Shown here piece after piece: positions 23,372 through 40,616 of a stretch of 64,000 bases of DNA (within the stretch, counting starts at the first letter, position 1; every line of letters begins with the position of its first letter). The notes under the pieces are model-generated. The model searched no databases. It had not been told where the DNA came from and was given only the letters and a program-made list of their open reading frames with translations. The stretch lies in assembly GCA_028030915.1 (NCBI GenBank), contig GCA_028030915.1_4867.1; one strand, 5' to 3'. This stretch comes from a phage. The translations under genes were made by a program, and so were the position numbers.

Positions 23372-23899
23372 TTAAACGAATCCGTCCAGTTCACCGTTGG
23401 TGGTGCTCAGGTCAGTTTTAACGATTGGCTGCGTTACAGTATAAACTGCAAGGCTGGCAGGTTGGTATTTAATGTGGCCTTCTTTCACCATAACAGTGAT
23501 GATTTTCTCACCACTGTCGCCGTCCTCGCGTGAAATGGTGAGTTCAGACAATGCAAACGCATCTTCCGTTTTACCGGCGGCAATTAGATCTGCGTTGACA
23601 AAAGCAAGCACTTCTTCATCGGTATCCCATTCTGCCTGGTCAGCGGTAACTGCTTTCGCACCGATGATGTTCAATGAATCGAGGCGGGTGTAATGCAGCT
23701 CTTTCTCGCCAGTAAAGTTAGCGGATTCCGCGGTGGCAGTGATGGTGAGTTTGGAGTTGCGAGTGTCTCCAGAATCTGCTGGTGAATAGTCAGCAACAGC
23801 GCCGAATGTAACGTCAGCAGTAGTTAACGGACTAGACAGTCCGCTGTTTGCAGCATTAAACAGCGCGACGAGTTGGTCTTTTGCAGAGATGACTGCCAT
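23372..23899 (-). CDS. paralog-family protein, short member with C-terminal NGELDGF tag (175 aa)
   Basis: N-terminus MAVISAKDQLVALFNAANSG resembles the family N-terminus; C-terminus TDLSTTNGELDGFV matches the tag of the A-type proteins. Confidence 0.6.
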   Translation of the reverse strand: MAVISAKDQLVALFNAANSGLSSPLTTADVTFGAVADYSPADSGDTRNSKLTITATAESANFTGEKELHYTRLDSLNIIGAKAVTADQAEWDTDEEVLAFVNADLIAAGKTEDAFALSELTISREDGDSGEKIITVMVKEGHIKYQPASLAVYTVTQPIVKTDLSTTNGELDGFV

Positions 23900-24022
23900 G
23901 GTTGTTTCCTTATAGTAGGTTTGTGGTGCATACTAAATCGTTCTAAAAACAACATAGTGGGCTTAATATGACAGTAAAGTTGGCTGTTAAACGAGAAAGT
24001 TTTTACCACTGAAAGGTACTCT

Positions 24023-24514
24023 ATGAAACGTCTATTTATCGTATTCGCGATTATAAACCTGTTGGCCGGTTGTGTTCAGTCGCCAAGCAACATAGGACAA
24101 TTTAGCGCCACACCAGTAAAGAATCACGACTTGGTGATTTATACATGCACAGGGACGCAGGAGAAGTTTGTAGACTACCGTCCGGTACTGGACAACCTAC
24201 AAATGATGCCGCGGTCAGTAACAGTAATGGATGTGGGTGCAAACTGGGTAGCAGCGTGGGACGGTGGCAAACTAGAGTCACCGATGATGTTTAAAGATAC
24301 AATTGGCAAAATCGACGGGAATGTTAATACCACCACAGGTGAGCGTTATTACCGTATTAATAAAACCGTAAACGATAGCCCCACTTACTCTTTTTCGGAT
24401 GTGAACCCGTATACCGGCGAAGGTAAAGGGATGACATTCTTTCGCTGCAGCAGCGGGTTTATCGGTGAAGTTCCTACTCCGATTACGATTGTTCCGTTAG
24501 AAGAAAATAAATAA
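24023..24514 (+). CDS. putative lipoprotein (163 aa)
   Basis: N-terminal signal peptide with lipobox MKRLFIVFAIINLLAGC; followed by a terminator. Confidence 0.65.
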   Translation: MKRLFIVFAIINLLAGCVQSPSNIGQFSATPVKNHDLVIYTCTGTQEKFVDYRPVLDNLQMMPRSVTVMDVGANWVAAWDGGKLESPMMFKDTIGKIDGNVNTTTGERYYRINKTVNDSPTYSFSDVNPYTGEGKGMTFFRCSSGFIGEVPTPITIVPLEENK

Positions 24515-24516
24515 TG

Positions 24517-24560
24517 CTTACCCACTCCCGTAAGGGGAGTGGGTAAGGGCTTTATTTACC
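24517..24560 (+). terminator. rho-independent terminator
   Basis: 13-bp stem cttacccactccc / ggggagtgggtaag followed by ggctttattta. Confidence 0.6.
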
Positions 24561-24639
24561 CTCTAAAACGCTCTGTAACGCTCTCTAAGCGCATTAAACG
24601 TATCAAATGATAAATGATATTACTTTTGATTAAAGTGGA

Positions 24640-25155
24640 TTAGATTTTAACTAGCTTGCTCCAATCGATGGGTTGTTGCTTAACCACTTTAACGGTACCA
24701 CGTGTCGGTGACCAGAAGGTGATATCAGGCTGGTTGCGTACGTCAACATGCAGCCAGGTAATATCGCACTCGATAAAGTGAATAAACGGAAACTCGTTAG
24801 GGTTCGCGGCAATATAGTCGTGTACTTTCTGCAACGGAGTATCAAGCATTGTTGCATCAAACGCATTACCGAATTTATGCATACTGCCTGATTCGGCGTA
24901 CAGTTTGTTTGCACGAGTTTGCCAATCGCCACCCTTTGGTTTCTCTTGATTAATAAAGAACTGCAGGGTACGCAGACTACGCTGTTGCTGGGAACTGGTT
25001 AAAATCACCATCCGCCCAAAACGATTACGAATCTGTTGGAGCGAGATTAGCAGTAACGGATTAAGGAAACGAATAGCACCTTCACCGTATTTCGCGATGT
25101 ACTCCTGCGGCATCAACTCTTTTAACGCGAAGTTGGCAGGATTCGGATGAAACAT
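24640..25155 (-). CDS. peptidase M15-family (L-alanyl-D-glutamate or D-Ala-D-Ala peptidase-like) cell-wall hydrolase
   Basis: zinc-ligand motifs SMHKFGNAFD (S-x-H-x-x-G-x-A-x-D) and WLHVD; aaggagag SD; 171 aa. Confidence 0.65.
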   Translation of the reverse strand: MFHPNPANFALKELMPQEYIAKYGEGAIRFLNPLLLISLQQIRNRFGRMVILTSSQQQRSLRTLQFFINQEKPKGGDWQTRANKLYAESGSMHKFGNAFDATMLDTPLQKVHDYIAANPNEFPFIHFIECDITWLHVDVRNQPDITFWSPTRGTVKVVKQQPIDWSKLVKI

Positions 25156-25164
25156 TTTCTCTCC

Positions 25165-25806: not shown

Positions 25807-25813
25807 ACTGACC

Positions 25814-25906
25814 TCACGTCATATAACGCACGACCATCGTGAGGACCATTAATCCCAGTAAAATGGGCATTAAGCCTTTCGGCCAGTCGTCGTTGTCGTA
25901 TTGCAT
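25814..25906 (-). CDS. small hydrophobic peptide (30 aa), possible lysis-associated membrane peptide
   Basis: hand-found: ATG 25906 with ggaggg SD; MQYDNDDWPKGLMPILLGLMVLTMVVRYMT; stop 8 nt before the DUF1353 start; below the ORF-track cutoff. Confidence 0.3.
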   Translation of the reverse strand: MQYDNDDWPKGLMPILLGLMVLTMVVRYMT

Positions 25907-26094
25907 GGCTTTACCCTCCGACAGAAGATCGCACGTAATAGTTTGAAGAACCCAGAATCGTAATACGTTTCCGGAACGGTTTGTACTTCGGGGAACTTAG
26001 GCGGAGTTGGACGGTGGGTCATTACGTTTTCTCCTTGCGGCAAAAACAAGGGCGCGCCAGATAGCTTTCATTAAGGCAGCAAACCAATTCTGTT

Positions 26095-26712
26095 TCATTT
26101 GCACATCCCCAACTTAGCCACGTAGTCTGGCATTTCCTGATAGACGCGGCCATACCAGCCGTAAGTAAACTCTTCGTTATCCTCACGCCCTTCACTGATT
26201 TCCGTGTAGTACGCAACCTGATGACAGGTTAAAGCGAACATCAGTCGATTCAGGCCCTCTTCCCCACGGGCTTTGATGAAGCCTTCTAACGCTGTTAACG
26301 TACGTGGCCCGATACCACCATCGGCATCGATATCATCGTATAGTTTACCCTGACGGTTTAATACGTTCAGAATACGTTGCAGGGACTTGATACAGTTACC
26401 GCGTCCTGCGTTAATGCCGAAATCAAACATTCGGTCAGCTAGCAGGACATTCATTTTCATAATCTGGTCTAAACGCATCCGTTGCCACCAGAGTTTGTTG
26501 TAGATGTCTAACGCGGTTTCTAGGCTCAGGTCACGCATATCCCCTTTATAGCCATATTCACGCGCAGTGAGTTCAGTGACACCACGGTTCGTTGCTTTAC
26601 CCAAATCTTTCGGGTTATTAACGTAACCGGCTTCGATGTTTACTTTGGCACGAATAATGCCCTCTTTACTCCAACGATCGACCACGATAACCTCCTGCGT
26701 TGATAGGGTCAT
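26095..26712 (-). CDS. glycoside hydrolase family 108-like muramidase (lysozyme) with probable peptidoglycan-binding C-terminus
   Basis: IEAGYVNNPKDLGKATNRGVTELT resembles the GH108 EGGYVNDPxDPGGxTxxGIT signature; start refined to ATG 26712 because the listed start 26748 is encoded by the upstream terminator hairpin. Confidence 0.65.
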   Translation of the reverse strand: MTLSTQEVIVVDRWSKEGIIRAKVNIEAGYVNNPKDLGKATNRGVTELTAREYGYKGDMRDLSLETALDIYNKLWWQRMRLDQIMKMNVLLADRMFDFGINAGRGNCIKSLQRILNVLNRQGKLYDDIDADGGIGPRTLTALEGFIKARGEEGLNRLMFALTCHQVAYYTEISEGREDNEEFTYGWYGRVYQEMPDYVAKLGMCK

Positions 26713-26747
26713 AAAAAGAAAGCCTCTTCCCCGTGGGGAAGAGGGCA
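26713..26747 (-). terminator. rho-independent terminator (- strand) abutting the muramidase start
   Basis: - strand cctcttcccc-ac-ggggaagagg followed by ctttcttttt. Confidence 0.5.
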
Positions 26748-26790
26748 TGGGTTATTCTCAGGCTTTAACCCCGTCAAGTTCCTCGTTAAA

Positions 26791-28968
26791 TTATGATAAC
26801 GATTTCTTTGGCCGCTCCCACGGTTTAGGGGCGGATTTGGTATACGGATTACATTCCATCATCTTGCCGAGATACGCATCGTAATACACGAAGCGATCGA
26901 CATAGAACTTCTCCACCGGTGCACTACTGGTAGCCGATTTCACCCGGTTGCGTTCCACAGCGAGGTTAATCGTCCCGGTAGGCGCGGGTTTTAGCGTGAA
27001 CATCACCGCACGGTTGTAACGCCAAGTGTCGTGCACAATATCAAACTCCGATACACTGTGTGCCATGATACCAAACAATGTGGTGCTCGGTAAATTGGCT
27101 ACAGCATCACCGTATGGTGTTCCCACCAAACCGCCGGGTATGTTTTGCTTTTTGAACAGCGTACCTGAAATAATCGTACCTAAGAACTCCACAACTACAG
27201 GCTTGGTTGGGTCGGTGACTTTATCTATCCCATCCGCACTGGCCAGTCGATTGGCATCTAAAACTGCGAGGTAGTCGAGGAACTCTTGGTACTCGTCGGT
27301 AACATTCGGTTTCACCGTTCCGACGGATACCCAGTTGACGATACTTTTATTCCCACCGACAGCTTCGCCTGCCATCCCAGGGCGAGTCCATGACATCCCG
27401 TCTTCACGACCGTAGACATAGACTGGCGAGCCGGTAGCCGGGGTGTTCCATTGCTCGAACGCTGTATATCGTCCCGGCTGGCCCCAATCCCCACCCGGAC
27501 CGCCATAGTAGCGACTCTGGTAGCCGGTAAATTGCGCGACGACTAACTGGGTAGCACCGCCTTTGTCACGGGACCCAGCTAAGCCGTTACGGTTATTGGT
27601 GCCGCTGGGCACCGCCGCGCCTGGCCCGAGAGGCGCACCACCAGCTCCACCGATCTTGGTGGTGCTAAACGCATAGTAGTCGCCCCCACCCCCACCTCCG
27701 GCGATGGTGCCGTAGTTTTCGATGGTGACTTTGCCACGGAAGGCATCGGTAATGTGGATTGCGTCAGCTCCGTCTGCTGATGTGTTCGCAGGCAGAGAAT
27801 AGACCATACCCGAACCACCACGACCAAGAATGGTTCCCCGGTTAACGAAGTTCCAAACCACCTCGCCAATTTGCGGCAATTCGTCGATAACGAACGTCGG
27901 TTTCAGGTTGCTGTCGCGATAAACGAAAGCCCCTGCATCCACGGTCACGTTAACAAACAAACGCCCGCACGCCGCATGGTTGGTCAACGTCGTGGCCCAG
28001 TAGCTGTCCGAAACTTGCGACGTAGTTGTGTAGTTCAGGTTAAGGGTTTGCTCGTTATCTTGATAGCGTGCCACATTCAACGTGGCACTGCCCATGACTT
28101 TGTACGAACCCTCCACGGGTGCCAATTGCACTTGTCTTGGCCACTCGCCTGCCAAGTTCTCTACAGGAGCAATTTCGTTTACATCAAAAACACTCCGAAT
28201 GCCGAGTGTCTCGATGGCCAGAGCATCGTGCAGGCTACCGGTGAAATCATCCGGGACGTATGTGGTTTTGCCTGCATATGTCTCGAGTTTGTTACGTGAA
28301 AAGAACACATACTTCGTTCCAAACATCCCGCTCCCCGGTCTAGCGGTCAAAGCCACGACGCTGTTATACGCAGAGGTTTGGCCTATATCCTCCGGGGACA
28401 TCGGGGCGCTGACATCGACTTTATCAAGATCCACGATCCGTTTGGCTGCATTAGAGTAGAAGTTAATCCACTGCTGTTTATTCGCAGCCTTTAACGTGAG
28501 AATGATATTGGTAACAGTGTAGACGGTGTTGATATCCACGTCGCCGTTTATCACATCTAGCGTTTGGCTGCCGTACCAGACAAGACTTGTCTGTTTCGCC
28601 TGGAACGTGATGCGCGCAGCATTGTTTGTCCAAGTGATAGGCAGGTCTTCAAAGTCGTCGGTTAAAAAGGTAATCCCCAGTAAAGTGTCTAAATGCGGCA
28701 ACAGTTCGTGAATGGATGCACAAGTGGGAATGGCATCCAACTTAACCTTAGCGAAATAATCAGCAATATTTTGCTTCGTGACTTGGGCCGTAATTTGACC
28801 GTAATTTGAATACCCCGGACCCCCTGTCAGTGTGACGTCTAGGGTTTTTTCGTCACGATGCGCCACGGACACCAGGCGTACGTTAGCGGGGTCTACTGCT
28901 TTGGCGACCGCGTTTTTACGGTTGAGCGACCGAATCACGGTCGCCACTAAATCAGGAGTGTAGGACAT
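26791..28968 (-). CDS. Gly-rich fibre-like structural protein (725 aa) with C-terminal PYTKSAPKPW tag
   Basis: Gly-rich tracts (TIAGGGGGGDYY, GGAGGAPLGPGAA); C-terminal NPYTKSAPKPWERPKK resembles the C-terminus of the upstream 439-aa protein. Confidence 0.6.
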   Translation of the reverse strand: MSYTPDLVATVIRSLNRKNAVAKAVDPANVRLVSVAHRDEKTLDVTLTGGPGYSNYGQITAQVTKQNIADYFAKVKLDAIPTCASIHELLPHLDTLLGITFLTDDFEDLPITWTNNAARITFQAKQTSLVWYGSQTLDVINGDVDINTVYTVTNIILTLKAANKQQWINFYSNAAKRIVDLDKVDVSAPMSPEDIGQTSAYNSVVALTARPGSGMFGTKYVFFSRNKLETYAGKTTYVPDDFTGSLHDALAIETLGIRSVFDVNEIAPVENLAGEWPRQVQLAPVEGSYKVMGSATLNVARYQDNEQTLNLNYTTTSQVSDSYWATTLTNHAACGRLFVNVTVDAGAFVYRDSNLKPTFVIDELPQIGEVVWNFVNRGTILGRGGSGMVYSLPANTSADGADAIHITDAFRGKVTIENYGTIAGGGGGGDYYAFSTTKIGGAGGAPLGPGAAVPSGTNNRNGLAGSRDKGGATQLVVAQFTGYQSRYYGGPGGDWGQPGRYTAFEQWNTPATGSPVYVYGREDGMSWTRPGMAGEAVGGNKSIVNWVSVGTVKPNVTDEYQEFLDYLAVLDANRLASADGIDKVTDPTKPVVVEFLGTIISGTLFKKQNIPGGLVGTPYGDAVANLPSTTLFGIMAHSVSEFDIVHDTWRYNRAVMFTLKPAPTGTINLAVERNRVKSATSSAPVEKFYVDRFVYYDAYLGKMMECNPYTKSAPKPWERPKKSLS

Positions 28969-28982
28969 GGTGACACCTTAGT

Positions 28983-30302
28983 CTATAGCGGTGGATACCA
29001 AGGGACCGGGGCGGTTTTGCTATATGGACTGTAGACCATATAGCCGCCTTTGCTTGGGTCGTAATAGATGAAATAGTTACAGTAATTCGAGTAGAGGCTC
29101 GTCAATTGTTTGGATTGGTATCCGTTACGGTATAGTCCCTGGTAAGTAATAGCCGATGTCGTGGTGGTGTAAGCAGTGTGGTACAGTACCCGACGCCGGT
29201 TAGCAATACTTTCTTGGAACATCTCTTCGGTCGGAAACGCGTGTTGCATCAGCCGTCGAATACTCCCGGTACAGTATCGAGTGCCATACGGGGAACCCGT
29301 TAAATCATCCATTGTTTCAGGCGCTTCCGCCCGAGTCAACACGTACTCGTTTTGATACAACGTGACGCTCATCGAATTTGAGCTGGTTTCCCGGAACCTC
29401 ATGTAACGCGCATAACGTTCGACGTCCTCTTCCTGCGCCAAATAGGCCACGTTATTTTTCGGACCAAAGTGCAAGAAGAACGGACGGCGGAGATTACCCA
29501 TATCCTCAGGTGGCGTCAACTTCACGCAGTAATTGTACTCCCCACGCATATCAGGGTCTAAGCCTGGGTTGTTATTGCGTGTAGCGACATACCCATAGAG
29601 GTCATACGGGTTATCGGTAGCAGCATTACTGATGGTGAACGGGATGCCAGACCATGCCGACAGCGCCGCGATAAACTGGGTCATGTACGAGTTACTGTTT
29701 AGTCGCAGCGGGGTACCCATTGGAATATTGATTATCTGTTGGGTGTACATGCTCCAGTCGAGTCGATAGACCGTGCTGTAAACATCCATGGGTTCCCAAG
29801 CCCCGGTTTCGGTGGTGTGGTACAAGTCGGCAAAGCTGGGCTCTTCACGAATAAAGCTAATAGGAATGTGACCCGTGAATGCGGGGTTATCCGATTTAAT
29901 CGCCACCGTCCGATCGCCCGTTGCCACAGTGATCATTGCAAACTGGCTGTCGGGATACGTTAAATCGTCAGCAGTAAGCACCAACCCACATGCTGCGGAA
30001 ATCCGGTCGATGATGTCGCGGTAGACCGTCGCCCGATAAGGTACTTTAACCGGTACGCTGACGCCTTTAAAATACTGCGAAAGGTTTAAGCGGTCGTAGT
30101 AGATGTCCATCTTACCGCTGTAACCGCCACCCTGTAATCCGTTTACCACTATACGGCTGTTGCGGCCATCGCGCAAGGCATTGGTTAAAGGACCTTGTAA
30201 TAACGCCACGTTGGTTGCGTTGAGTGGTTTCTTGAGCTGCGGGTTATCACGATTAATCTGATCCCAAACCAGCTGCATGACAGGTTTGTTATAGTTGATC
30301 AT
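28983..30302 (-). CDS. paralog-family protein, A-type variant (439 aa) with C-terminal SPYSKTAPVPW tag
   Basis: family N-terminus (...INRDNPQL...MDIYYDRLNLSQYF); C-terminus SPYSKTAPVPWYPPL instead of NGELDGF. Confidence 0.6.
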   Translation of the reverse strand: MINYNKPVMQLVWDQINRDNPQLKKPLNATNVALLQGPLTNALRDGRNSRIVVNGLQGGGYSGKMDIYYDRLNLSQYFKGVSVPVKVPYRATVYRDIIDRISAACGLVLTADDLTYPDSQFAMITVATGDRTVAIKSDNPAFTGHIPISFIREEPSFADLYHTTETGAWEPMDVYSTVYRLDWSMYTQQIINIPMGTPLRLNSNSYMTQFIAALSAWSGIPFTISNAATDNPYDLYGYVATRNNNPGLDPDMRGEYNYCVKLTPPEDMGNLRRPFFLHFGPKNNVAYLAQEEDVERYARYMRFRETSSNSMSVTLYQNEYVLTRAEAPETMDDLTGSPYGTRYCTGSIRRLMQHAFPTEEMFQESIANRRRVLYHTAYTTTTSAITYQGLYRNGYQSKQLTSLYSNYCNYFIYYDPSKGGYMVYSPYSKTAPVPWYPPL

Positions 30303-30310
30303 TGCAACGT

Positions 30311-30350: not shown

Positions 30351-30376
30351 CTGCTATGGTGAAGTACGCTATCCCT

Positions 30377-30469: not shown

Positions 30470-30480
30470 ATTAGCTCCTG

Positions 30481-31383
30481 TTAGCTAAGAACCAATTCGA
30501 TAACGTGGACTACCGACGCGCTATCGGTCGAATAGGTATACGATGGTGAGTCTGGTGAGTTGCTGCGATAGTACCAGGCGTTGTAGATGTCACGACCGTT
30601 GGCAAACAATGTTGCGCTTGAATCGGTTGGACTACCGCCGGAGCGCATCGGTAAGTCGCCAAAACGTCTTACGACGCCCGCGTACCGGAACAAGCTTGCG
30701 AACGTGTTGTGCCACTCGCCGTCTTGAAAATAACCACCGCTGCTTAGGTAGGTGCTGTGCCCATAACTGTAGTCTCCGAGTCGAGGCAAGCGTACCACAT
30801 ACTCGTAACCGTCTTTATTAAATGTCCGACGCTGGTTAGTGGTAGTGACGCCCCCTGGCGGGAAACCGTAGTCATCTGTTCCCCAGGCCAGACCTTGCCG
30901 GTATTGTTCTTCCCACGTCGTCCCTAAACGGGTCACCGTGTCAGGAATGAACAGAATGCGTCCTTTGAAAACGAATTTATGGAACAATGTTGGAGCTTGG
31001 TTCCAGGCATTAAAGCCAATTAAACCATTCAGCTCGGCATGGTTAAGAATAAATTCTTCGTTTGTCAGTGTGCCAAAGTAGCCACGATGCCAATCGCCAC
31101 GAATAAGTTCCTGTGGGCCGGGCCCTGTCATTGGAAAGTCGCCCTGTACAATCGGCAGCCCCATAACCTTTTCAGTGCCCTTTACCGCCACGATGCGATA
31201 TTGATACGTTTTATACGCCTCGGTGGTCGTGTCCTCGTACGTCGTTGTGTTACCTGGTAGTGTTACAATAGGTTCCCCCGGTGCCACTGGGTTAACACTT
31301 TGTCTAGGGTTGTCGTAACGATAGATTTCAATGGAATCTAAAGTCTGACCTGGCTGTTGTTTCCAGTTTAAGATAATCGACAT
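30481..31383 (-). CDS. module protein C3 (FN3-like N-terminus plus shared GPGP/GYFG domain), 300 aa
   Basis: MSIILNWKQ...IEIYR...YQYRIVAVKG beta-sandwich-like N-terminus; TGPGPQELIRGDWHRGYFGTLTNEEF; paralog of C1 and C2. Confidence 0.65.
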   Translation of the reverse strand: MSIILNWKQQPGQTLDSIEIYRYDNPRQSVNPVAPGEPIVTLPGNTTTYEDTTTEAYKTYQYRIVAVKGTEKVMGLPIVQGDFPMTGPGPQELIRGDWHRGYFGTLTNEEFILNHAELNGLIGFNAWNQAPTLFHKFVFKGRILFIPDTVTRLGTTWEEQYRQGLAWGTDDYGFPPGGVTTTNQRRTFNKDGYEYVVRLPRLGDYSYGHSTYLSSGGYFQDGEWHNTFASLFRYAGVVRRFGDLPMRSGGSPTDSSATLFANGRDIYNAWYYRSNSPDSPSYTYSTDSASVVHVIELVLS

Positions 31384-31386
31384 GTT

Positions 31387-32385
31387 TTACTCCACTAACT
31401 CGATAACGAATGCGTACAAACCGACCTTCTCAGCACTATCAACTAACGTAACTTGGGAGAGGTTACGTTTCGACGTATTGGTTATGCTTGAATCGATAGG
31501 CGCAGACCCGCGAACCAGAACTAATCCCGATTCAGGATCACGTTCTTGGCACAAGAAACCTTTGCCTTGGTAAGCGCTACCGCTCCCATAAATGGACGCT
31601 GGACTAATATTAGTCCAGTTAGGGAGCATTTGTTTGTTAGGGATACATTCTCCGAACGGATAAACAAAATCGTTATATTCGCAGCGACCATATTCCAAGT
31701 CATCATGGTCTGCGTTTCGCAACGATTCATCCAATGTCATTACTGTCGGTTCGTCCCCGTCGGTTAAACCGCGCAGCAATCGCATCCGATAGGTGTCGCC
31801 TTGCCATTCAAACAACCCACTCTGGTCAACACCTGCCAAATCCCCACGTCCGTTATCAGGACCAAATCCATCAACACCGTACACAAGCCCCGCGTTATAA
31901 ATGTCATTCCACGAGTAAAGTGTAGAGTTAAATCGTCCGCCGCTGTTCATCATGTAGTAAACTTTACCATGACGATAAAACTTGTTCATGATTAGCGTGC
32001 CCGTGCCCGATATCCCTGTTAATGCACGAAAGCCTGCAGGCAACGCGTCATAGGTCATCTGTTCTTCGAACGGCAACTGCCCCAGAAACGCCAAGTCGTC
32101 AGTATCGGAATAGTTAATCTGGTCGACGCCACCCACACCACGACGGTTTTTAATGACAATGGATTTTTGTGGACTACCTACGGTACGACCGTTAACAGTT
32201 ACTGTTAAAAGATACCAGTAACGGGTGTTAAGAATAACGGTTTCGTCCGTCCATTCCGTTTCGCCATTACTTAAAGTTGCAATAGGGGCTGGTAATGCGG
32301 CTGTATTTATTTTAGCCGTGCCCCGATAAATGTTAACAATTGAACCTGCCGGATTTTCATTTTTCCAGCGTAGTGTGAAAGCCAT
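31387..32385 (-). CDS. module protein B3 (FN3-like N-terminus plus shared domain), 332 aa
   Basis: MAFTLRWKN...VNIYRG...YWYLLTVTVNG; paralog of B1 and B2. Confidence 0.65.
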   Translation of the reverse strand: MAFTLRWKNENPAGSIVNIYRGTAKINTAALPAPIATLSNGETEWTDETVILNTRYWYLLTVTVNGRTVGSPQKSIVIKNRRGVGGVDQINYSDTDDLAFLGQLPFEEQMTYDALPAGFRALTGISGTGTLIMNKFYRHGKVYYMMNSGGRFNSTLYSWNDIYNAGLVYGVDGFGPDNGRGDLAGVDQSGLFEWQGDTYRMRLLRGLTDGDEPTVMTLDESLRNADHDDLEYGRCEYNDFVYPFGECIPNKQMLPNWTNISPASIYGSGSAYQGKGFLCQERDPESGLVLVRGSAPIDSSITNTSKRNLSQVTLVDSAEKVGLYAFVIELVE

Positions 32386-32395
32386 CTGTTACTCC

Positions 32396-33838
32396 TTAGA
32401 AGCCGTTCAACTCACCGTTCGCGGTTGCTAAATCTGTTTTAAGTGGAGGTTCTGCCTGAGTAGGCGGTAGTGGACGCGGTGCGTCGACGTGTGGTTCAAG
32501 TACAACCATCGGCCTAACTGTACCTACGCTCTTCGACACTGTCGATAACGGCAGCGCAGTATCGACGTTTGGTTCACCCACCACAATCGGGCTGATAGGT
32601 TCTTCCACCTGTTCCGCAGTTGTTGCTAGAGGTCTCGGCGCATCTGTTGTCGCAACCTCGACTGCAAGAGGGCGAATGCTATCAGGTTGTGGTGATGGTA
32701 CATTAGGAATAACCCTAACGCGCCACACAACATCCCCTTCCACATCAGCTAAAGGTAAGACGATGTCGTCCTTATTGATTTCCTCTAAAACAGGCCACCA
32801 GTAAGTGGTATCTGCAAGGGTTACCCATTCAACTGAGCCACCGCGCATATTGCAACGTTGTACTTTAACAGGGTTACCCCCGGTTAACAGTTGTTGCGTG
32901 AAGAAGACGGTGGTTCTGGTTAACGTGGTGTCATTTGCCCAGTCGCCACCCGTAGAACCGTCACCGAGTTGTGAAATAAGCCACAACGGCGTGGCCTTTG
33001 ATAAATCAGGGCTAACCGGAACGGAGACGCGGTAATAATGCGTCTTGTTATTCTCAGTTTTCGTGACAATCAAAGCCTGGTCAACAGGTTCGATACCGTC
33101 TGGATACGGACCAGCGTCACCTGTACCGAAAATGGCACCCGCTTGATAAAGGGCCGTCCAGGTTGCTGTTAACGTTCCGGTAGTCGGTAGATAAACAATC
33201 TTACCATCCTTGAAAAATTTCAACCACTCGAAAGTCATTTTCGTTGGGGCAATATCAGGACGAATTAGGTTGTTTAGTTCAGCAAAGGTAAATAACTCTT
33301 GCTGAGAAACGTGGCCGAAGTATCCGTTTGTGCTGTCCCCTGCCAACAGATATTTATTGCCTGGCCCAGAATCTGGATAGTACCTTACGGCTTCATTCAA
33401 ATAATCGACCGGGATATAGCCGCGATAGCATACGCTATTATACGCGGTTAAATTAATACGTGTTGGCGTTGCCAGCGATTTGATAGGCGCGTCTACCGAC
33501 TGTACACTGCTATCAGATAACCAAACACCGTATAAATCGCGTAGAGCTGGGAGAAGATCCCGCACGGTCTTGGCCGTTTGTGGTACGTAGACGCGCGGAG
33601 CTATTTTAAATAGATCTGATAATGTTAAACGGTCGTAATAGACCGTTATTTCCCCAGAGAATCCTTTACCGGGTTTACCTACCAACGTAATCACCGTGTT
33701 ACGACCATTCTTAGTGGTCTCGGCAGGAATACCCCTCACCCCAATCGAATCAGCACTGATTCGACCTGCGAGTTCAGGGTTATCCCTTACAACCTGTTGG
33801 CAGAGCAGTTCCAGTTCGGGTGCGCTATACAATCCCAT
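32396..33838 (-). CDS. module protein A3 (family N-terminal domain, central GPG/GYFG domain, C-terminal xPRPL repeats plus NGELNGF tag), 480 aa
   Basis: N-terminus nearly identical to A2 (MGLYSAPELELLCQQVVRDNPELAGRIS...ITVYYDRLTLSDLF); ends ...ATANGELNGF. Confidence 0.65.
   Translation of the reverse strand: MGLYSAPELELLCQQVVRDNPELAGRISADSIGVRGIPAETTKNGRNTVITLVGKPGKGFSGEITVYYDRLTLSDLFKIAPRVYVPQTAKTVRDLLPALRDLYGVWLSDSSVQSVDAPIKSLATPTRINLTAYNSVCYRGYIPVDYLNEAVRYYPDSGPGNKYLLAGDSTNGYFGHVSQQELFTFAELNNLIRPDIAPTKMTFEWLKFFKDGKIVYLPTTGTLTATWTALYQAGAIFGTGDAGPYPDGIEPVDQALIVTKTENNKTHYYRVSVPVSPDLSKATPLWLISQLGDGSTGGDWANDTTLTRTTVFFTQQLLTGGNPVKVQRCNMRGGSVEWVTLADTTYWWPVLEEINKDDIVLPLADVEGDVVWRVRVIPNVPSPQPDSIRPLAVEVATTDAPRPLATTAEQVEEPISPIVVGEPNVDTALPLSTVSKSVGTVRPMVVLEPHVDAPRPLPPTQAEPPLKTDLATANGELNGF
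33605..33838. repeat. nucleotide-level repeat (A3 5' region) shared with A2
   Basis: about 230 nt visibly near-identical to 37015..37247 (ggtcgtaata..ccgttatttccccag..tcctttaccgggtt..cctaccaacgtaatc..ttggcagagcagttcca..). Confidence 0.6.
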
Positions 33839-33849
33839 GAAGTCTCCTG

Positions 33850-34749
33850 TTAAGGCAGAACGAGTTCAAGTACCGCAATAGAGCGTATTGTAGCGGTACC
33901 GTAGTTACCCCATAACGGCGACTCTGGGTAGGGTGGACGGTTGTACCACTGAGCGGACAAGTTAACCATAGCCGCAAAGAATGCAGATTGTTGGGCAGTA
34001 ACCGAATCGATTGAACCGACCGGAAGGTCGTCAAAGCGCGGAAACTGCCCACTGTAGTTGTACAGGCGCGCGAAGGTGTTAAACCACTCACCGTCGAGAT
34101 ACAACTCGGTGTTACCGCTTCCAACGAAAGACGTCCAGTATTTGTAGTCGAACAAATACGGCAAGCGCACCACGTATTCGTAACCGTTTTTCGTCACCGT
34201 GCGGCGTTGGTTACGTGCACTAGCCCAGCTCGGCACATATCCGTTGCCATCCTGGCCGTACATCAGCCCCTGGTTATAAATGAACTGCGGGCTAGCGTAT
34301 ATTATCGAGTTATCGGACATAAACAGAATACGGTTTTTGTAAATGAACTTATGCCAGGCACCAACGGCGGAACTGAACATATTCACCACGAGGCTGTTCA
34401 GTTCCGCGTTAGTGAATAACTCTGCTGGCGTTACTGTTCCAAAGTATCCGGCGTGCCAGTCGCCGTATAACAGTTTCTGGGGGCCAGGCCCGGTGTCTAA
34501 AAAGAACCCTTGGGCGGTAGGGGTGTTGAAGACACGCTCACCGTCTTTAACCGCAGCTATCCAATAACGGTAAGTGGTGTTGTTTTCCACAGCGTTGTCT
34601 TCGTACGATGTAGCGTCACCCGGAAGGGTTGCCAGAGGCGTTCCCGGTGCATTAACATCAATGGTGGCGTTGCCCGGCGTCTTGCGATAGATTTCAATGT
34701 TATCGAGCGCCTGTGGCTTCCGTTGTGCAAAGTTTAATGTAATAGGCAT
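33850..34749 (-). CDS. module protein C2, about 299 aa
   Basis: start refined to ATG 34749 (gagga SD; listed start is TTG 34785); MPITLNFAQ...IEIYRK...YRYWIAAVKD; TGPGPQKLLYGDWHAGYFGTVTPAELF. Confidence 0.65.
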   Translation of the reverse strand: MPITLNFAQRKPQALDNIEIYRKTPGNATIDVNAPGTPLATLPGDATSYEDNAVENNTTYRYWIAAVKDGERVFNTPTAQGFFLDTGPGPQKLLYGDWHAGYFGTVTPAELFTNAELNSLVVNMFSSAVGAWHKFIYKNRILFMSDNSIIYASPQFIYNQGLMYGQDGNGYVPSWASARNQRRTVTKNGYEYVVRLPYLFDYKYWTSFVGSGNTELYLDGEWFNTFARLYNYSGQFPRFDDLPVGSIDSVTAQQSAFFAAMVNLSAQWYNRPPYPESPLWGNYGTATIRSIAVLELVLP

Positions 34750-34751
34750 GA

Positions 34752-35738
34752 TTAATCCTCGATAAGCTCGATTACTGGAATCCAAATACCGCCGGTCGCA
34801 CCAGGGACATGTTGTATACGCTGGAGGTTATCCACAGTATCAGTGGAATCCGCCGCCGCCCATCCGCGCGTCAGCCCCAACTTACTGTCTGGGTCAAACT
34901 CCTGACAATGCGCCCCACGGCCTGCCACCAGCGATCCACTTCCGAATATGCTGGTGTTCGACCACTTTATCAGGGACATCACTTTTTTCTTTTCTGGGAA
35001 CCAGCTACTTATCCCATAGATGAGTCGGTTGTATTCGCTATCGGCAGTATACGGCGACTCGTCATGGAGTTTACCGTTCCACTGTGCGTCGAGTGTCATG
35101 ACCGGGCTTTCACTGTCGAGCGTTAACCCGCGCAGCAGGCGCATCCGATAGCGGTCACCCAACCACGTAAACTCCCCAGCCTGGTCAACGTCAGGTAAAT
35201 CACCATGACCGCCTTCCGGACCAGGTCCCGCCACACCGTACAGCAAACCCGCGTTATAAATCGCATCACGGCTATACAGCGTGTTGCCGTTCACACGAAG
35301 ACCACTAAACAGATACAGAATTTTACCGTCTAGCTGGAACTTCATCAAGCCCGGCTTAACAGTTGGGTCGTATCCAGAAAGGGCCACAAACCCTGGCGGA
35401 TAATCACCCGCGCTAGGTAATTCACCGTACGCCACGTACCCGTAATACGCAAAGCGGTCATCACCGTACTGTGGAGCCACGATGCCGATACCGCGACGGT
35501 TCTGAATCAGAATTGATTTCTGCGGACTGAACAGTGTCCGACTTCCCACTGTCACGGTGGTCATGTAGTAATACGTTGTCCCCAGTATCGCTGTTCGGTC
35601 AGTATACTCAGTTTCCCCGTTAGTGAACGTTGCCAGGGGTTCAGGTAATGCCGTACGCACCAGAGGTTTGGTGTCGCGGTACAGCTTCACGGTCGAAGCC
35701 CCAGAGTTATTGTTCGTCCAACGAATTGTAAAAGCCAT
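34752..35738 (-). CDS. module protein B2, 328 aa
   Basis: MAFTIRWTNNNSGASTVKLYRD...YYYMTTVTVGS. Confidence 0.65.
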   Translation of the reverse strand: MAFTIRWTNNNSGASTVKLYRDTKPLVRTALPEPLATFTNGETEYTDRTAILGTTYYYMTTVTVGSRTLFSPQKSILIQNRRGIGIVAPQYGDDRFAYYGYVAYGELPSAGDYPPGFVALSGYDPTVKPGLMKFQLDGKILYLFSGLRVNGNTLYSRDAIYNAGLLYGVAGPGPEGGHGDLPDVDQAGEFTWLGDRYRMRLLRGLTLDSESPVMTLDAQWNGKLHDESPYTADSEYNRLIYGISSWFPEKKKVMSLIKWSNTSIFGSGSLVAGRGAHCQEFDPDSKLGLTRGWAAADSTDTVDNLQRIQHVPGATGGIWIPVIELIED

Positions 35739-35750
35739 TGTCGTTACCTC

Positions 35751-37247
35751 TTATTGGAATCCATCCAACTCACCGTTAGTATCGCCCAGAGTAATTTTTG
35801 AAGGTTGGGCGATTTGGTCAGTCGTGAGAATAATCGGTCTAATCTTAACGCTAGCCATGCCTGTTACCGCGACGGAATATGCACGTTCATCATTGTCCGT
35901 CGTGGCAAGCAGAGGACGTGGTGAGTCTGATGACGCTTCCCGTACCCAGGCAGGGGTGGCAGTTTCGGTGTTGTCGGTGTTGAAAACTAACGGACGTGGA
36001 TTCGCTGCGGCGGAGGTTTCCGTAATAGGCACCACACGAAGAGATTCATTTTGGTCGATGTCCGTCAGAGTAACCACGGACGGTGCCCATGTTAATTCTG
36101 CACCTTCGTCAATCAACGGCACAGGTTCATTGGCAACATCAAACATCTCCAAGATTGGCCAAAAGCCAGAAGAGGTGTAGATGTAGGTGTATGAACGATA
36201 GCTCCCACTGATAGACTGGTAATACGCTTGGTCGGCACCGAACTGGTGTCGTAACCACACGTAATCCAGGAAGTTAGCATCAGTCGTGCTAAGAGTTCCC
36301 CACTCCCCATATACGTTCACCGACCCCAATTTGCTGGTCAGTGACAGGATAGAGGTGATTGACGGCGGTTTACTCCAATCAGGCGCGGCGGCGTTCTCGG
36401 TGTAATACGGGATAGACATTCTGAAATAATGCGTTCCTTCATCATCCCGTTTTACCATGTATTTCAACTGTTCAACATCGACAGGTGTGTAAGTCGACTT
36501 CGGGCGAGGTCCTGCGTCTCCGGAATCAAATATTGCACCCTTGTTGTACAGGTCTGCCCAGGTAACGTTGCAAATCGCACGGGTCGGAACAAACACTACC
36601 GCCCCATTCAGAAAGAATTTGAGCCACTTGATAGCGTAGCGGTTAGGCCAGTTGGTGCCGTTATAGAGGGCATACACCATTTCATCAGATGTGAATAACT
36701 CTTCCGCGCTTACCAGCCCAAAGAATCCGTATAACTCATTACCGGCCATTAATCCTTTTGGCCCAGGGCCCGACTTCGGATACATCGCAATCGGTTCGTA
36801 AACATAGGTCATCTTGCATGACCCGGTATAACACAAGGAGTTAGCGTGCGCCGTCAGAGTTACAGTTTCCGGCGTAGCGTATTTCATTAATGCAACGTTT
36901 GGACTGGTGATGTCACTCGCGGTTAAGTTCAACCCGTTCAATTCATTGAACGCCGGTAACGCTTCCGCATGGGTTTGTGCGCTACGTGGAATACTCACCA
37001 TATTCGGGCCAGACTTAAATAGACTGGCCAGATTCAACCGGTCGTAATATACCGTTATTTCCCCAGCAAATCCTTTACCGGGTTTTCCTACCAACGTAAT
37101 CTGAGTGTTTCGTCCGTTAACGTTTTTCGCAACAGGAACACCCCTGACCCCAATGGAGTCAGGGGTGATTTTTCCTGCTAAACCGGGATTGTCACGCACA
37201 ATTTGTTGGCAGAGCAGTTCCATTGAAGGTTCTGTATACAACCCCAT
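35751..37247 (-). CDS. module protein A2, 498 aa, C-terminal NGELDGF tag
   Basis: MGLYTEPSMELLCQQIVRDNPGLAGKIT...ITVYYDRLNLASLF; xPRPL repeats; ends ...GDTNGELDGFQ. Confidence 0.65.
   Translation of the reverse strand: MGLYTEPSMELLCQQIVRDNPGLAGKITPDSIGVRGVPVAKNVNGRNTQITLVGKPGKGFAGEITVYYDRLNLASLFKSGPNMVSIPRSAQTHAEALPAFNELNGLNLTASDITSPNVALMKYATPETVTLTAHANSLCYTGSCKMTYVYEPIAMYPKSGPGPKGLMAGNELYGFFGLVSAEELFTSDEMVYALYNGTNWPNRYAIKWLKFFLNGAVVFVPTRAICNVTWADLYNKGAIFDSGDAGPRPKSTYTPVDVEQLKYMVKRDDEGTHYFRMSIPYYTENAAAPDWSKPPSITSILSLTSKLGSVNVYGEWGTLSTTDANFLDYVWLRHQFGADQAYYQSISGSYRSYTYIYTSSGFWPILEMFDVANEPVPLIDEGAELTWAPSVVTLTDIDQNESLRVVPITETSAAANPRPLVFNTDNTETATPAWVREASSDSPRPLLATTDNDERAYSVAVTGMASVKIRPIILTTDQIAQPSKITLGDTNGELDGFQ
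37015..37247. repeat. nucleotide-level repeat (A2 5' region) shared with A3
   Basis: see 33605..33838. Confidence 0.6.
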
Positions 37248-37260
37248 GGTATTTACTCCA

Positions 37261-38184
37261 TTACGGTAAGACTAATTCAAAAGCAAAGAATATCGTGGCC
37301 GAGTTCCCGACACCTGCGGTGTTACTAATCCCCATAGGCACGGTGCCATACGCATAAGCGAATATGTTGTTGCTCCACAAAGGAGCTAATACAGCGGCAC
37401 CTGACTCATTCGGCTGCGCAGTCGCGCCTTGTCTTTCAAGTGAGTCAATCGCACCAAGACCGAGGGCTGCGTACTGTGCACCGACAGGATACAAACGGCC
37501 CATTGTGTTTCGCCATTCACCGTTGTTGTAATCCTGTCCTGAGAGTGCCGCGTCGTACGGGACTGCGTAAGGTAATCGGATACGGTACGTACGACCATCC
37601 TTCGTGACCTTACAATCTTGTTTAGTCGCCGTGGCTCCCTGCGGAACAATACTTCCGACATCATCGGTCCCGTACATCATGCCGTACTGATACGCCATTT
37701 GTACCGAGTTGCTTTTCGAATGCATCGTCGCTGGGAAGAAGACAATTCGCCCACGGAAAATAAACTTGTGCCATTCCTGAGGGTCGTAAGTAAACATGTT
37801 TCCCTGCTGCGCGGTTAACATGAGTTTTAACTCGGCAGTATTAAAGAACTCGGTATTAGATACCGTACCGAAATAGCCTGACGCCCAATCGCCACGCAAA
37901 ATAGTTTGTGGCCCCGGTCCAGTGTCCGGATAGAACCCTTGCGTAATCGGATTGCCGATAAGTCGTTCATTATCTTTCACAGCAGCTACCCAGTAACGAT
38001 AAGTTGTATTCTTCGTCAGGGTATCGATATTATCTACGAACTCTACCGCGCTACCGGATAAGGTGGCGTGGGGTGTGCCTGGGTTGTAAACGTCGATTGT
38101 TGCGTTCCATCCTTCCTTGCGGTAGATTTCAATCGCGGTAAGACCTTTGCTGGCTTGGGACGGCCAGCTTAACCGTATAGTCAT
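37261..38184 (-). CDS. module protein C1, 307 aa
   Basis: MTIRLSWPSQ...IEIYRKEG...YRYWVAAVKD; TGPGPQTILRGDWASGYFGTVSNTEFF. Confidence 0.65.
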   Translation of the reverse strand: MTIRLSWPSQASKGLTAIEIYRKEGWNATIDVYNPGTPHATLSGSAVEFVDNIDTLTKNTTYRYWVAAVKDNERLIGNPITQGFYPDTGPGPQTILRGDWASGYFGTVSNTEFFNTAELKLMLTAQQGNMFTYDPQEWHKFIFRGRIVFFPATMHSKSNSVQMAYQYGMMYGTDDVGSIVPQGATATKQDCKVTKDGRTYRIRLPYAVPYDAALSGQDYNNGEWRNTMGRLYPVGAQYAALGLGAIDSLERQGATAQPNESGAAVLAPLWSNNIFAYAYGTVPMGISNTAGVGNSATIFFAFELVLP

Positions 38185-38193
38185 GACTGCCCC

Positions 38194-39192
38194 TTACTCG
38201 ACCAGTTCAAAGATAGGGTAGTAGCGCCCTTTCGTGGTGGGTGATAAATAGTTTATACGCTGAATCGTGGATACGGGTGTTCCACCGGCATTGTTAAAAA
38301 TACCACGATGGAGCACACGGTCTTCCGCGGTGTCGTGTTCCATACAGAGAACACCACCGCCGAAATACTGTGCCAAGGTTCCCAAAGTACCCTGCCCCAG
38401 AAAAGTATAACTGTTCGTTGCCCAGTTAGCCCAACGCTGTTTCCACGGCACCTCGTTAACCATCGTGTAAAGTAAATCGTTATACTCACACGGGTTGGTT
38501 AGAGAAGCGATTTCATCGTGGGTTTTCCCATTGTAGTCAGCTACGAAAGGATACGCAGGAGACTCGCTAGACGTCGTCAGGCCGCGAGGAAGACGCATAA
38601 TGTACGTATCCCCTTTGTGGACTATCTTAGCGTCTTGTGGAGTGGCTGGTAGCGTTCCATGGCCGTTCTCTGGGCCAGCATCGCCTGTACCATAGACTAA
38701 ACCAGCTTGATAGAGGGAAGCCCAGTCCACAGGCGTATTCGGGAACTGCGACGTGCTAGATAGCATGTAATAGATCTTCCCGTTTCGGGTAAATTTATAC
38801 AACGCCACACGATCGGTTAGTAGGTTAGGGAACATCGCCAAAAATGCAGGTGGCATTTGCGACGGAAGCCACTGTTCGTCGTAAGGAACCGCACCCATAA
38901 ACCCTAAACGGTCGTCACCGTTTAGAATAGTCATTGGACCGATCCCACGCTTTATCTCAATGGTGTATTTCTGGCTAGACGATGCCACTGTTTTACCGTT
39001 GGCGGTTACCGTCAGAAGGTAATAATAGGTTGCGCCTGGTGTGGCGGTGGTATCACGCCATTCTGTCTCGCCATTTGAGAGCGTTGCAATCGGTTCAGGC
39101 AAAGCGCTTGGTGTGATATCTTTAACATCACGGTAGATTTTTACTACCGTAGGGATTACGTTTGGATTTTTCCAACGCAAAGTAAAAGACAT
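38194..39192 (-). CDS. module protein B1, 332 aa
   Basis: MSFTLRWKNPNVIPTVVKIYRD...YYYLLTVTANG. Confidence 0.65.
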   Translation of the reverse strand: MSFTLRWKNPNVIPTVVKIYRDVKDITPSALPEPIATLSNGETEWRDTTATPGATYYYLLTVTANGKTVASSSQKYTIEIKRGIGPMTILNGDDRLGFMGAVPYDEQWLPSQMPPAFLAMFPNLLTDRVALYKFTRNGKIYYMLSSTSQFPNTPVDWASLYQAGLVYGTGDAGPENGHGTLPATPQDAKIVHKGDTYIMRLPRGLTTSSESPAYPFVADYNGKTHDEIASLTNPCEYNDLLYTMVNEVPWKQRWANWATNSYTFLGQGTLGTLAQYFGGGVLCMEHDTAEDRVLHRGIFNNAGGTPVSTIQRINYLSPTTKGRYYPIFELVE

Positions 39193-39203
39193 AGATGATA
39201 CCT

Positions 39204-40616
39204 CTACTTAAAGCCGTCCAGTTCACCGTTAAGAGACGTTAACGTTGTCTTGTCAGGGGGCGTATACATTTCAGCGGCGGCTGCAATAGGTTGGAAGTCG
39301 ACTGTCTTCGGCAGCATTAAAGCAGGCGGATGCAGTGCGAAACTGTTTTCTGAAGTAACAACTACCGGTTCGAAATCGGTAGTATCCGGATTACCGAGCA
39401 CTAACGGCTTGAGACTAAATGTGTTTTCTGCGGACACGCTGCACGGTTGGAGACTGTAATCTACCGCACCATGGATATCTTCTAAACCCAAGGTAACTGT
39501 GGACTTATCCACCAACTCCAGCACCGGGAACCAGTAGTAGTTGCCCGCACTCGATGATTTTTCTAAGTTTGTCCAACTGGCTCCAGACAACGTCGCCATG
39601 CGATGATTGGCGACGTTGGTGTTCAGTGTATCTTTCAATAAACAGAACAGCGACCAGTAACTGTTAATCGGTTTGTCCCACGTTCCATTATACAGAAAGT
39701 TGAACATCTCAAACTCACTACCTGCTAACTCAGCGGCAGTTGGGGTGCCGCTGACATATGGGTCCTTCCCAGCACTAGGTAGACGAACGCGGAAGTAAAA
39801 CCTTTTATTGTCTGCGCCTGTAAAGCTAATGATGCGTCCCTGGTTAACGGGCGTCGCCGCAGGGTATTTACCATTATCGTCTGTTCCGTAAACGAGTCCG
39901 TTTGTATATAACGTATTCCAGGAGATGGAGCCAGCGACAGGACTGATCGGGAGGTAAATAACCCTACCCTGGTAAAAGAACTTGTACCAACCTTCGGCAC
40001 CAGAATGTACCGGTGGTAACGCACCGGCCGATATAGTGGCATTAAGAAGTTGAGAGTGTGTAAACAACTCTGCAGTTCTGGTTGTTCCGAAATAACCCGC
40101 GATAGTGTTACCTTGCAGCAACGTTTTAGGGCCAGGTCCAGAATCGGGGTAAATTGCACCACTCGGGACGGTATAACGTATCGTTAAGCTGCCTGTAAAC
40201 GCAGGGCAATTGCCTGAGATATTTAATTTCAACGTCTGCGGCGAAACGCTCGGTTTAGGTAAACTTGCGTCAGGTGACTGCAAATCAGAAGCAACTAATG
40301 TAAGCCCCAATGCGTCGTTTATTGCAGGTAGCGCGTCTCGTACCGTTAAGACTGTATCTTTGATAGCCACAGTCGGCACAAAATTAAATAAAGTGGCCAG
40401 GTTAATCCGGTCGTAGTACACGGTAACATTACCTTGTACACCTGTCCCTGGATACCCGGTGAAAACAGCTTTGGTGTTACGTTGGTTTAACGTAACTGAG
40501 GTTGGGCCACCGGTTAAAGCAGCGATAGCCGGCGTCAACTTAACAACTAAATCAGGGTTATCCCGATTGACTTGGTCGTATACAAGCAGTGCCGACTCCT
40601 TCGAGTAAAATAGCAT
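39204..40616 (-). CDS. module protein A1, 470 aa, C-terminal NGELDGF tag
   Basis: MLFYSKESALLVYDQVNRDNPDL...NVTVYYDRINLATLF; YPDSGPGPKTLLQGNTIAGYFGTTRTAELF; ends ...TSLNGELDGFK. Confidence 0.65.
   Translation of the reverse strand: MLFYSKESALLVYDQVNRDNPDLVVKLTPAIAALTGGPTSVTLNQRNTKAVFTGYPGTGVQGNVTVYYDRINLATLFNFVPTVAIKDTVLTVRDALPAINDALGLTLVASDLQSPDASLPKPSVSPQTLKLNISGNCPAFTGSLTIRYTVPSGAIYPDSGPGPKTLLQGNTIAGYFGTTRTAELFTHSQLLNATISAGALPPVHSGAEGWYKFFYQGRVIYLPISPVAGSISWNTLYTNGLVYGTDDNGKYPAATPVNQGRIISFTGADNKRFYFRVRLPSAGKDPYVSGTPTAAELAGSEFEMFNFLYNGTWDKPINSYWSLFCLLKDTLNTNVANHRMATLSGASWTNLEKSSSAGNYYWFPVLELVDKSTVTLGLEDIHGAVDYSLQPCSVSAENTFSLKPLVLGNPDTTDFEPVVVTSENSFALHPPALMLPKTVDFQPIAAAAEMYTPPDKTTLTSLNGELDGFK

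Follow-up and report, generated by a model that had tools for sequence, protein, structure and literature searches.

Among the ~86 virion proteins of the Salmonella phage SPN3US, about 20 belong to one family, the DUF7941 family, whose role has been open since 2016–2017. The family was recognized from PSI-BLAST as 'paralog family B', without an assigned function, by Ali et al. 2017 (PMC5694885) and Scheuch et al. 2023 (PMC10052503), and its ~20 members are all virion proteins, with gp160 and gp141 present in high abundance (PMC5694885). A docking-linker mechanism was proposed only in 2026, in a preprint on the related phage Goslar (10.64898/2026.04.21.720040), which calls DUF7941 chimallivirus-specific and presents AlphaFold3 head-to-tail dimers and oligomers with a 'disordered linker' (with or without a C-terminal domain) on the N-terminal domain (NTD) of the next protein. 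The same preprint reports that purified Goslar gp22 forms filaments in negative stain and that a gp126-gp127 dimer of phage phiKZ fits unexplained baseplate density, and it puts the DUF7941 fibres on the baseplate. In this study, we examine a short peptide, NGELDGF, at the C-terminal end of four proteins encoded in a 64,000-nucleotide stretch of phage DNA (contig GCA_028030915.1_4867.1 of NCBI GenBank assembly GCA_028030915.1; 'the window' below means this whole stretch). We find that the peptide is the core of a longer conserved motif and that the four proteins are members of the DUF7941 family, and we think it rather probable that the motif is the donor element by which one DUF7941 protomer docks on the NTD of another to build head-to-tail chains.

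Over 11 kb the window matches SPN3US and the close relatives of that phage (genus Seoulvirus) at 97–98% identity, and its genes are named here after SPN3US. The four proteins are A1, A2 and A3 (SPN3US gp145, gp148 and gp151), each of which belongs to an A-B-C gene triplet, and a separate protein of 175 residues (gp160); all four are 96–98% identical to their SPN3US counterparts. An earlier note on this DNA had drawn attention to their common ending, and the ending is real: a six-frame search found NGEL[DN]GF exactly four times in the window, always on the minus strand and 0–1 residue from a stop codon (39210–39230 in the 470-residue A1, 35757–35777 in A2, 32399–32419 in A3 and 23378–23398 in gp160), against ~1e-4 occurrences expected from the amino-acid composition and none in 200 shuffles. 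The conserved block is ~14–17 residues long rather than seven, P-x-K-T-[DT]-L-x-x-x-N-G-E-L-[DN]-G-F, with a ~14-residue consensus unit, K-T-D-L-S-T-T-N-G-E-L-D-G-F, to which we refer as the tag. On the minus strand the tag occupies 39210–39251 in A1 (residues 456–469, KTTLTSLNGELDGF, followed by K and the stop), 35757–35798 in A2 (residues 484–497, KITLGDTNGELDGF, followed by Q and the stop), 32399–32440 in A3 (residues 467–480, KTDLATANGELNGF, with the stop directly after) and 23378–23419 in gp160 (residues 161–174, KTDLSTTNGELDGF, followed by V and the stop). The 48-nucleotide segments encoding the four copies share a DNA identity of only 56–65%, and about half of the identical tag residues are encoded by different codons among the copies, which indicates that the peptide is under selection and was not recently copied; a recent common duplication is therefore not enough to account for the shared ending. 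A search of the literature for 'NGELDGF' or for a published description of the C-terminal motif found none, and the motif is apparently undescribed, the papers on the SPN3US family making no mention of it.

Purifying selection maintains the tag in SPN3US-like jumbo phages of at least five genera. Proteins ending in NGELDGF, for which the earlier note had proposed a search, are found in other phages of several such genera, including on the orthologous genes of Erwinia phages of Wellingtonvirus, Derbicusvirus and Machinavirus, some of which encode a second small tagged paralogue. Of the 69 homologues of gp160, 57 were aligned at 47–95% identity, and no other 14-residue window of the protein is as well conserved within this family (57 sequences) as KTDLSTTNGELDGF, whose mean majority-residue fraction is 0.88. 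Homologues of the A type retain the tag down to 27% identity, apart from one clean loss: the A1 orthologues of Machinavirus stop with ...YTPPES at the very point at which a tag should start, B1 follows after 12 nucleotides, and at this locus the tag was not found in any frame while B1 and C1 are kept (Erwinia phage Caitlin gp154, L007 9241–10611; likewise P0073–P0076 and P0083). In the Caitlin genome the tag persists on the remaining two A proteins and on two small paralogues. The ending is not, as had been thought, strictly C-terminal, since in homologues 0–18 variable residues follow the motif (0–9 in the gp160 family), and these extra residues indicate a signal that does not depend on a free C-terminus. 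In an exact scan of IMG/VR for NGELDGF at most four residues from the stop in open reading frames (ORFs) of at least 165 aa, the motif was found only on contigs of 107–245 kb, and each in-frame copy was preceded by D/N-L or a similar leucine motif; other exact matches in IMG/VR came from an unrelated family with an internal DENGELDGFREFAH and from short chance ORFs, and were discarded. A search with an alignment of 40-residue tails gave only 103 candidates and one 42-aa fragment, nothing of use.

The tag is also modular. Besides its loss from Machinavirus A1, it is borne by a homologue of gp155 in a related 237-kb contig (ending ...PKLLSALNGELDGFIS), and in one IMG/VR contig the complete C-terminal domain of a full-length DUF7941 protein is followed by ...KIELAKTNSVLPGF, an extension that resembles the tag. 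Two further observations concern variation in particular phages. In Erwinia phage pEa_SNUABM_11 (L004 19965–30817) all four tags have D or N for Glu (NGDLDGF, NGDLTGF, NGNLGEF and NGDLDDF), a parallel change that, in this small sample, a common binding partner or gene conversion might explain. Several deposited genomes of Salmonella SPFM phages contain scrambled versions of gp160 and gp145 with shuffled segments that match in three or four pieces by tblastn (P0060, P0062, P0064, P0066, P0069, P0094–P0097, P0099 and P0103); these look like assembly or consensus errors rather than biology.

The tagged proteins are members of Pfam DUF7941 (PF25613), that is, of SPN3US paralog family B. Against a gathering score of 27 bits, A1 scores 109.2, A2 105.4, A3 81.2 and gp160 43.5 bits (E 3.5e-11 for gp160), and DUF7941 N-termini are also found within the window on gp138–144, gp154 and gp155. 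The view that the ending sits on otherwise variable proteins with divergent upstream sequence is thus wrong, as the four are paralogues with a common N-terminal DUF7941 domain. In 34 aligned full-length DUF7941 proteins a motif L..L...V....L.G[LF].YP stands directly after the NTD (for example NELDGLLYP, TKLDGLVYP and, in Goslar gp34, KELDGLKF), and each of the seven full-length paralogues of the window, gp144 to gp138 (40664–46741, minus strand; recognized by Pfam for the first two and by alignment with orthologues and with Goslar gp22, gp31, gp33 and gp34 for all seven), has such an internal linker motif at this place. Every DUF7941 protein is a globular NTD followed by a conserved motif ending in [ED]-L-x-G-[FL], with a C-terminal domain next in the full-length members. 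Profile-profile alignment by hhalign places the gp160 family, residues 1–175, onto positions 2–175 of the 276-position full-length family with a probability of 98–99% in both local and global mode, and in this alignment the gp160 tag lands on the post-NTD linker motif.

In both place and sequence the tag is the counterpart of the DUF7941 post-NTD linker. With an NTD and a tag, and without a C-terminal domain, gp160 (23372–23899, minus strand) is the minimal protomer, of the type of Goslar gp23; the position of the linker motif is collinear in gp160, whereas in A1–A3 it is displaced to the C-terminus behind ~300–335 inserted residues. In the A proteins a C-type-lectin-like domain and ~80–115 residues of disordered ~13-residue repeats have entered between NTD and motif, an insertion that puts their motif at the extreme C-terminus. 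Other mini-proteins of NTD plus motif are SPN3US gp83 and gp237, encoded outside the window, which end ...RALDGFRPGEFLNG and ...TELNGLVYDVSDMAQA respectively (L090 2419–2946 for gp83 and L091 2365–2916 for gp237). A profile search with gp160 through 1.84 billion representatives returned 171 relatives, including 82 short ones (clusters at ≤50% identity), and 63 of these 82 have [LM]xG[FLYWIM] in their last 25 residues, compared with 0.016 per 25 residues elsewhere in the same proteins, so that the core motif is ~50-fold enriched at the C-termini of distant family members. Together with the linker alignment, this makes the tag the version of a family-wide motif that belongs to the SPN3US clade, its first half (DLSTTNG) being clade-specific.

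Within the A proteins the tag follows a domain succession that is best seen in A1 (all coordinates on the minus strand): the N-terminal DUF7941 domain, residues 1–150 (40167–40616), the presumed acceptor of a tag or linker; a central domain, residues 151–375 (39492–40166), with a C-type-lectin-like fold that is common to the B and C proteins and is a putative ligand-binding cargo; and a spacer, residues 376–455 (39252–39491), predicted to be disordered, with five ~13-residue repeats containing a conserved proline. A2 (498 aa, 35751–37247) and A3 (480 aa, 32396–33838; six repeats) have the same order of DUF7941 NTD, lectin-like domain, repeat spacer and tag, their spacers of five or six repeats lying at ~35799–36150 and ~32441–32785. 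The xPRPL repeats that the earlier note had described before the tag in the A proteins hold for A2 (NPRPL and DSPRPL, residues 417 and 443) and A3 (DAPRPL twice, residues 401 and 454), and A1 has none; each of the three spacers instead contains five or six units of ~13 residues with the pattern D-[FL]-x-P-[IV]-x-[FL]. The spacer is among the most variable parts of the A proteins, and P404, P417 and P443 of the A1 spacer are at least 90% conserved in the A family. Spacers of this kind may be more than a passive tether, for example by offering further weak docking sites or a structure formed only on assembly. The tag was also considered as the last copy of the spacer repeat, a possibility set aside on the differing column profiles of repeat and tag.

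Comparison with Goslar and phiKZ shows how far the arrangement is shared. Goslar gp22 and gp23 belong to the same Pfam family as the tagged proteins, and gp23 resembles gp160 in consisting of NTD and linker only (~175–181 aa) and in being among the most abundant virion proteins; with its 181 residues it ends ...NVADGFVKPTVSVVG, so that the core of the motif is common to both (...ADGF in Goslar, ...ELDGF in the SPN3US type), while the SPN3US-clade tag is a distinct and more conserved sub-variant. Both phages have cargo-bearing members with carbohydrate-binding-type domains, but in Goslar gp86 the donor stands directly after the NTD with the cargo behind it and no C-terminal tag, whereas in the A proteins cargo and repeat spacer come between. 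The linker of phiKZ, DISLLTKVNSFP (gp127-gp126, PDB 9XQD), hardly resembles the tag; phiKZ gp126 is the only clearly NTD-only protein, which would make a chain two units long, and phiKZ lacks the lectin-bearing A-B-C triplets. The SPN3US family B studies cover the very genes discussed here, gp145, gp148, gp151 and gp160, as virion proteins uncleaved by the protease gp245.

We propose that the ~14-residue short linear motif around the heptapeptide acts as the 'donor' element of DUF7941 virion proteins, the donor motif of one protomer docking non-covalently on the NTD of another. Docking of this kind would link the proteins head-to-tail into flexible heteropolymeric chains, with the abundant gp160 making up the bulk of the chain and the A proteins, together with B and C, contributing lectin-like binding modules on long tethers. 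That the motif binds the NTD, does so in trans and builds fibres, as well as where these fibres would sit on the virion, we infer from homology to a recent and partly tested model. Natural proteins with two or three tandem DUF7941 NTDs in a single polypeptide (P0136, P0138, P0139, P0141 and P0147, some of which end in additional beta-rich domains) have the linker motif 10–20 residues before the next NTD, which is the order expected for a contact from donor(i) to acceptor(i+1). Among the roles that the earlier note had offered for the tag, docking is the best supported, on the indirect evidence of linker equivalence and tandem fusions; processing is not supported, and sorting and chaperone recognition found no support. 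The proteins gp154 and gp155 were also considered as donor-less chain caps and rejected in that capacity, since the match of gp154 to the DUF7941 profile is complete and takes in the linker, and a stretch resembling the linker is also present in gp155. Chaperone-usher pili are built by donor-strand exchange, in which an N-terminal donor peptide completes the immunoglobulin (Ig) fold of the next subunit as a beta-strand. They provide an analogy of mechanism only, in that a short terminal peptide from one subunit would fill a site on the next and so give a polar non-covalent polymer; there is no homology, and the pilus donor is N-terminal.

Structure predictions were made for A1 from a 35-sequence alignment and for gp160 with AlphaFold2 (AF2) from a 57-sequence alignment, both as monomers. 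The A1 model has confident domains at 1–150 (predicted local distance difference test, pLDDT, 80–90) and 151–375, and its NTD has the same fold as residues 1–150 of phiKZ gp127, which lies at the baseplate periphery (9XQD); residues 382–470 are disordered, with pLDDT below 50. Foldseek comparison of the gp160 model with the PDB gave no significant match, and A1, gp144 and the gp160 profile likewise found nothing when searched against PDB sequences.

Several points weigh against donor docking in trans. DLSTTNG, the first half of the tag, does not agree with the full-length linker (L...V....) in its hydrophobic pattern or its spacing, so that the case for equating tag and linker is mainly one of position, together with the ELDG[FL] core. 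What the Goslar preprint (10.64898/2026.04.21.720040, unreviewed) offers is itself an AlphaFold prediction combined with low-resolution electron microscopy. It also puts the fibres on the baseplate, while in SPN3US the normalised levels of gp138–155 and gp160 in tailless 255(am107) particles are as high or higher (PMC5694885, PMC10052503). The predictions that bear on binding are of monomers. In the A1 model the tag (pLDDT ~36) is disordered and stays off the NTD of the same chain, a domain within the reach of the spacer, while the gp160 model orders the tag, as a coil with one turn, against its own NTD at pLDDT 80–89, which could mean a role in cis rather than in trans.

A cis element, that is, a tag that folds back on its own NTD as a stabiliser or self-cap with no role between subunits, is the alternative that the gp160 model brings to mind, yet we regard it as unlikely. 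The predicted order in gp160 may reflect a cis contact or an intermolecular co-variation satisfied within one chain, as a monomer model can place intermolecular co-variation contacts intramolecularly. In A1 the NTD is predicted with confidence while the tag is disordered; the NTD of phiKZ gp127 was solved alone (9xqd), gp126 is an NTD without more, Machinavirus A1 does without the tag, and a long repeat spacer in front of a purely cis element is hard to explain. The A1 model was also inspected for cis docking of the tag, and with residues 382–470 left disordered it is uninformative either way.

The partner of the tag might instead lie outside DUF7941, in the capsid shell, a neck or baseplate protein, the B and C proteins or a chaperone such as gp157. 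This, too, seems improbable to us. Its appeal comes from the presence of the tagged proteins in tailless SPN3US heads by mass spectrometry, which makes an attachment site on the capsid conceivable, and from gp157 ('tail assembly chaperone', phrog_1158), which keeps its synteny with gp160 throughout the relatives examined. But the position of the motif matches the linker predicted to bind DUF7941 NTDs, mass spectrometry scores gp157 as non-virion, with trace amounts only, and B and C fit poorly as a target when gp160 is tagged without a B or C partner and Machinavirus B1 and C1 are kept beside a tagless A1.

In phage T4 the capsid targeting sequence is N-terminal and is cleaved after L/I-x-E. 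Like T4 capsid targeting sequences and propeptides, the tag is a short terminal signal on proteins found in the head, but it is C-terminal, has no A-x-E and has no reported cleavage. A processing or head-targeting signal, whether by prohead-protease cleavage at Glu or by loading into the prohead in the T4 manner, would make use of the invariant Glu of the motif and of the head assignment of these proteins, and gp245, the SPN3US prohead protease, does cut after Glu; we nevertheless consider it very improbable. gp245 needs A-x-E where the tag offers N-G-E, and the 14 cleavage sites revealed by semi-tryptic searches fall in nine proteins outside family B, with gp145, gp148, gp151 and gp160 listed as 'unlikely cleaved' in Table S6 (PMC10052503); we therefore rejected protease cleavage at NGE, on the motif and on published mass spectrometry. 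The published gp160 sequence coverage of 81–92% was set aside as evidence for the C-terminal peptide, several peptide combinations giving the same numbers. As for head targeting, most head-assigned proteins of family B (gp138–144, 146, 147, 149, 150, 152 and 153) have no terminal tag, and the C-type-lectin-like fold and the GP38-like adhesin domain suggest an external location. An intramolecular tail-fibre chaperone of the Peptidase_S74 type (PF13884) gave no Pfam match, and the tag has 14 residues where ~100 aa or more are required. That the tag is a functionless remnant of the ancestry of four proteins that are indeed paralogues is effectively refuted by its place as the most conserved window of gp160, its survival on A proteins at 27–30% identity beside a highly variable spacer, its diverged synonymous sites and the enrichment of its core at distant family C-termini.

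If donor docking is correct, the location of the chains needs to be reconciled with conflicting assignments, as the Goslar proteins are proposed to lie on the baseplate and mass spectrometry of SPN3US scored gp138–155 and gp160 as Head and only gp237 as Tail (PMC5694885, PMC10052503). The conflict runs through A1 itself, whose NTD has the fold of baseplate-bound phiKZ gp127 while the protein (gp145) is scored Head. Two possibilities present themselves: the chains are on the head or neck in this clade, or self-assembled filaments co-purify with the particles. The lectin-like and GP38-like domains favour the outside of the particle over an internal place from which the proteins would be ejected. 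The gp237 gene lies two genes from the tape-measure gene and, with its product the only Tail-scored member of the family, makes gp237 a candidate baseplate anchor.

Beyond the Goslar mechanism, the present analysis adds gp160 as the minimal, gp23-type protomer, the insertion in A proteins between acceptor and donor, and the order of elements in tandem fusions. Were the tag a connector, it would give a simple rule for chain membership and polarity and would account for the high abundance of gp160; it would also suggest the NTD plus the 14-mer as a handle for foreign binding domains on jumbo-phage fibres, and it would sharpen the conflict between a 'baseplate fibre cloud' (Goslar) and a 'head protein' (SPN3US). 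A broader and more doubtful extension is that the tag is a portable plug for cargo on a polar non-covalent DUF7941 chain of gp160, the seven full-length paralogues and the A-B-C modules, anchored at capsid or neck and not at the baseplate, in line with the mass spectrometry of tailless particles, as a head-borne host-binding fibre cloud; covalent tandem arrays of the unit in Mollicutes surface proteins would then imply that bacterial adhesins and phage fibres have undergone exchange. According to PMC13375240, InterPro has DUF7941 in Spiroplasma as well, contrary to the 'exclusively chimalliviruses' of the preprint. Mollicutes-type surface proteins (P0132, P0145, P0148 and P0151) contain 10–21 tandem repeats of ~75 residues resembling the second half of the gp160 profile, along with DUF285 and Spiralin domains and, in P0132, a C-terminal membrane anchor; each of the junctions between repeats, ...TINFTIKTDISTLDLNRNAGAFNS..., aligns to ...YTVTQPIVKTDLSTTNGELDGF, at only 10–13 bits per repeat and with high composition bias.

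The remaining genes of the region are on the minus strand unless stated otherwise. The B and C genes of the three triplets (30481–39192, a span that also includes A2 and A3) are B1 (gp146, 38194–39192) and C1 (gp147, 37261–38184), B2 (gp149, 34752–35738) and C2 (gp150, 33850–34785), and B3 (gp152, 31387–32385) and C3 (gp153, 30481–31383); their products have a short N-terminal domain and the lectin-like domain, without DUF7941 or a tag. Between the triplets and gp160 lie gp155 and gp154 (26791–30302), both without a tag here: in gp155 (26791–28968) the DUF7941 NTD is joined to a GP38-like adhesin domain rich in Gly (Pfam E 5.7e-18), although the protein is assigned to the head, and gp154 (28983–30302) is a full-length DUF7941 protein with an extra C-terminal module. 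The two share a different C-terminal module (phrog_6409), ending ..YYD...G.M...P....P.PW..P, and in a related contig (L029 176–7181) four paralogues of the gp154/gp155 type stand in a row, one of them with an NGELDGF tag. Between gp160 and lysis-type genes (gp158, 24640–25155, and the endolysin gp156, 26095–26748), the opposite strand encodes a predicted lipoprotein of 163 aa whose signal peptide ends LAGC (24023–24514, plus strand), an arrangement of lipoprotein and lysis genes that is also kept in the related contigs L012, L029 and L073.

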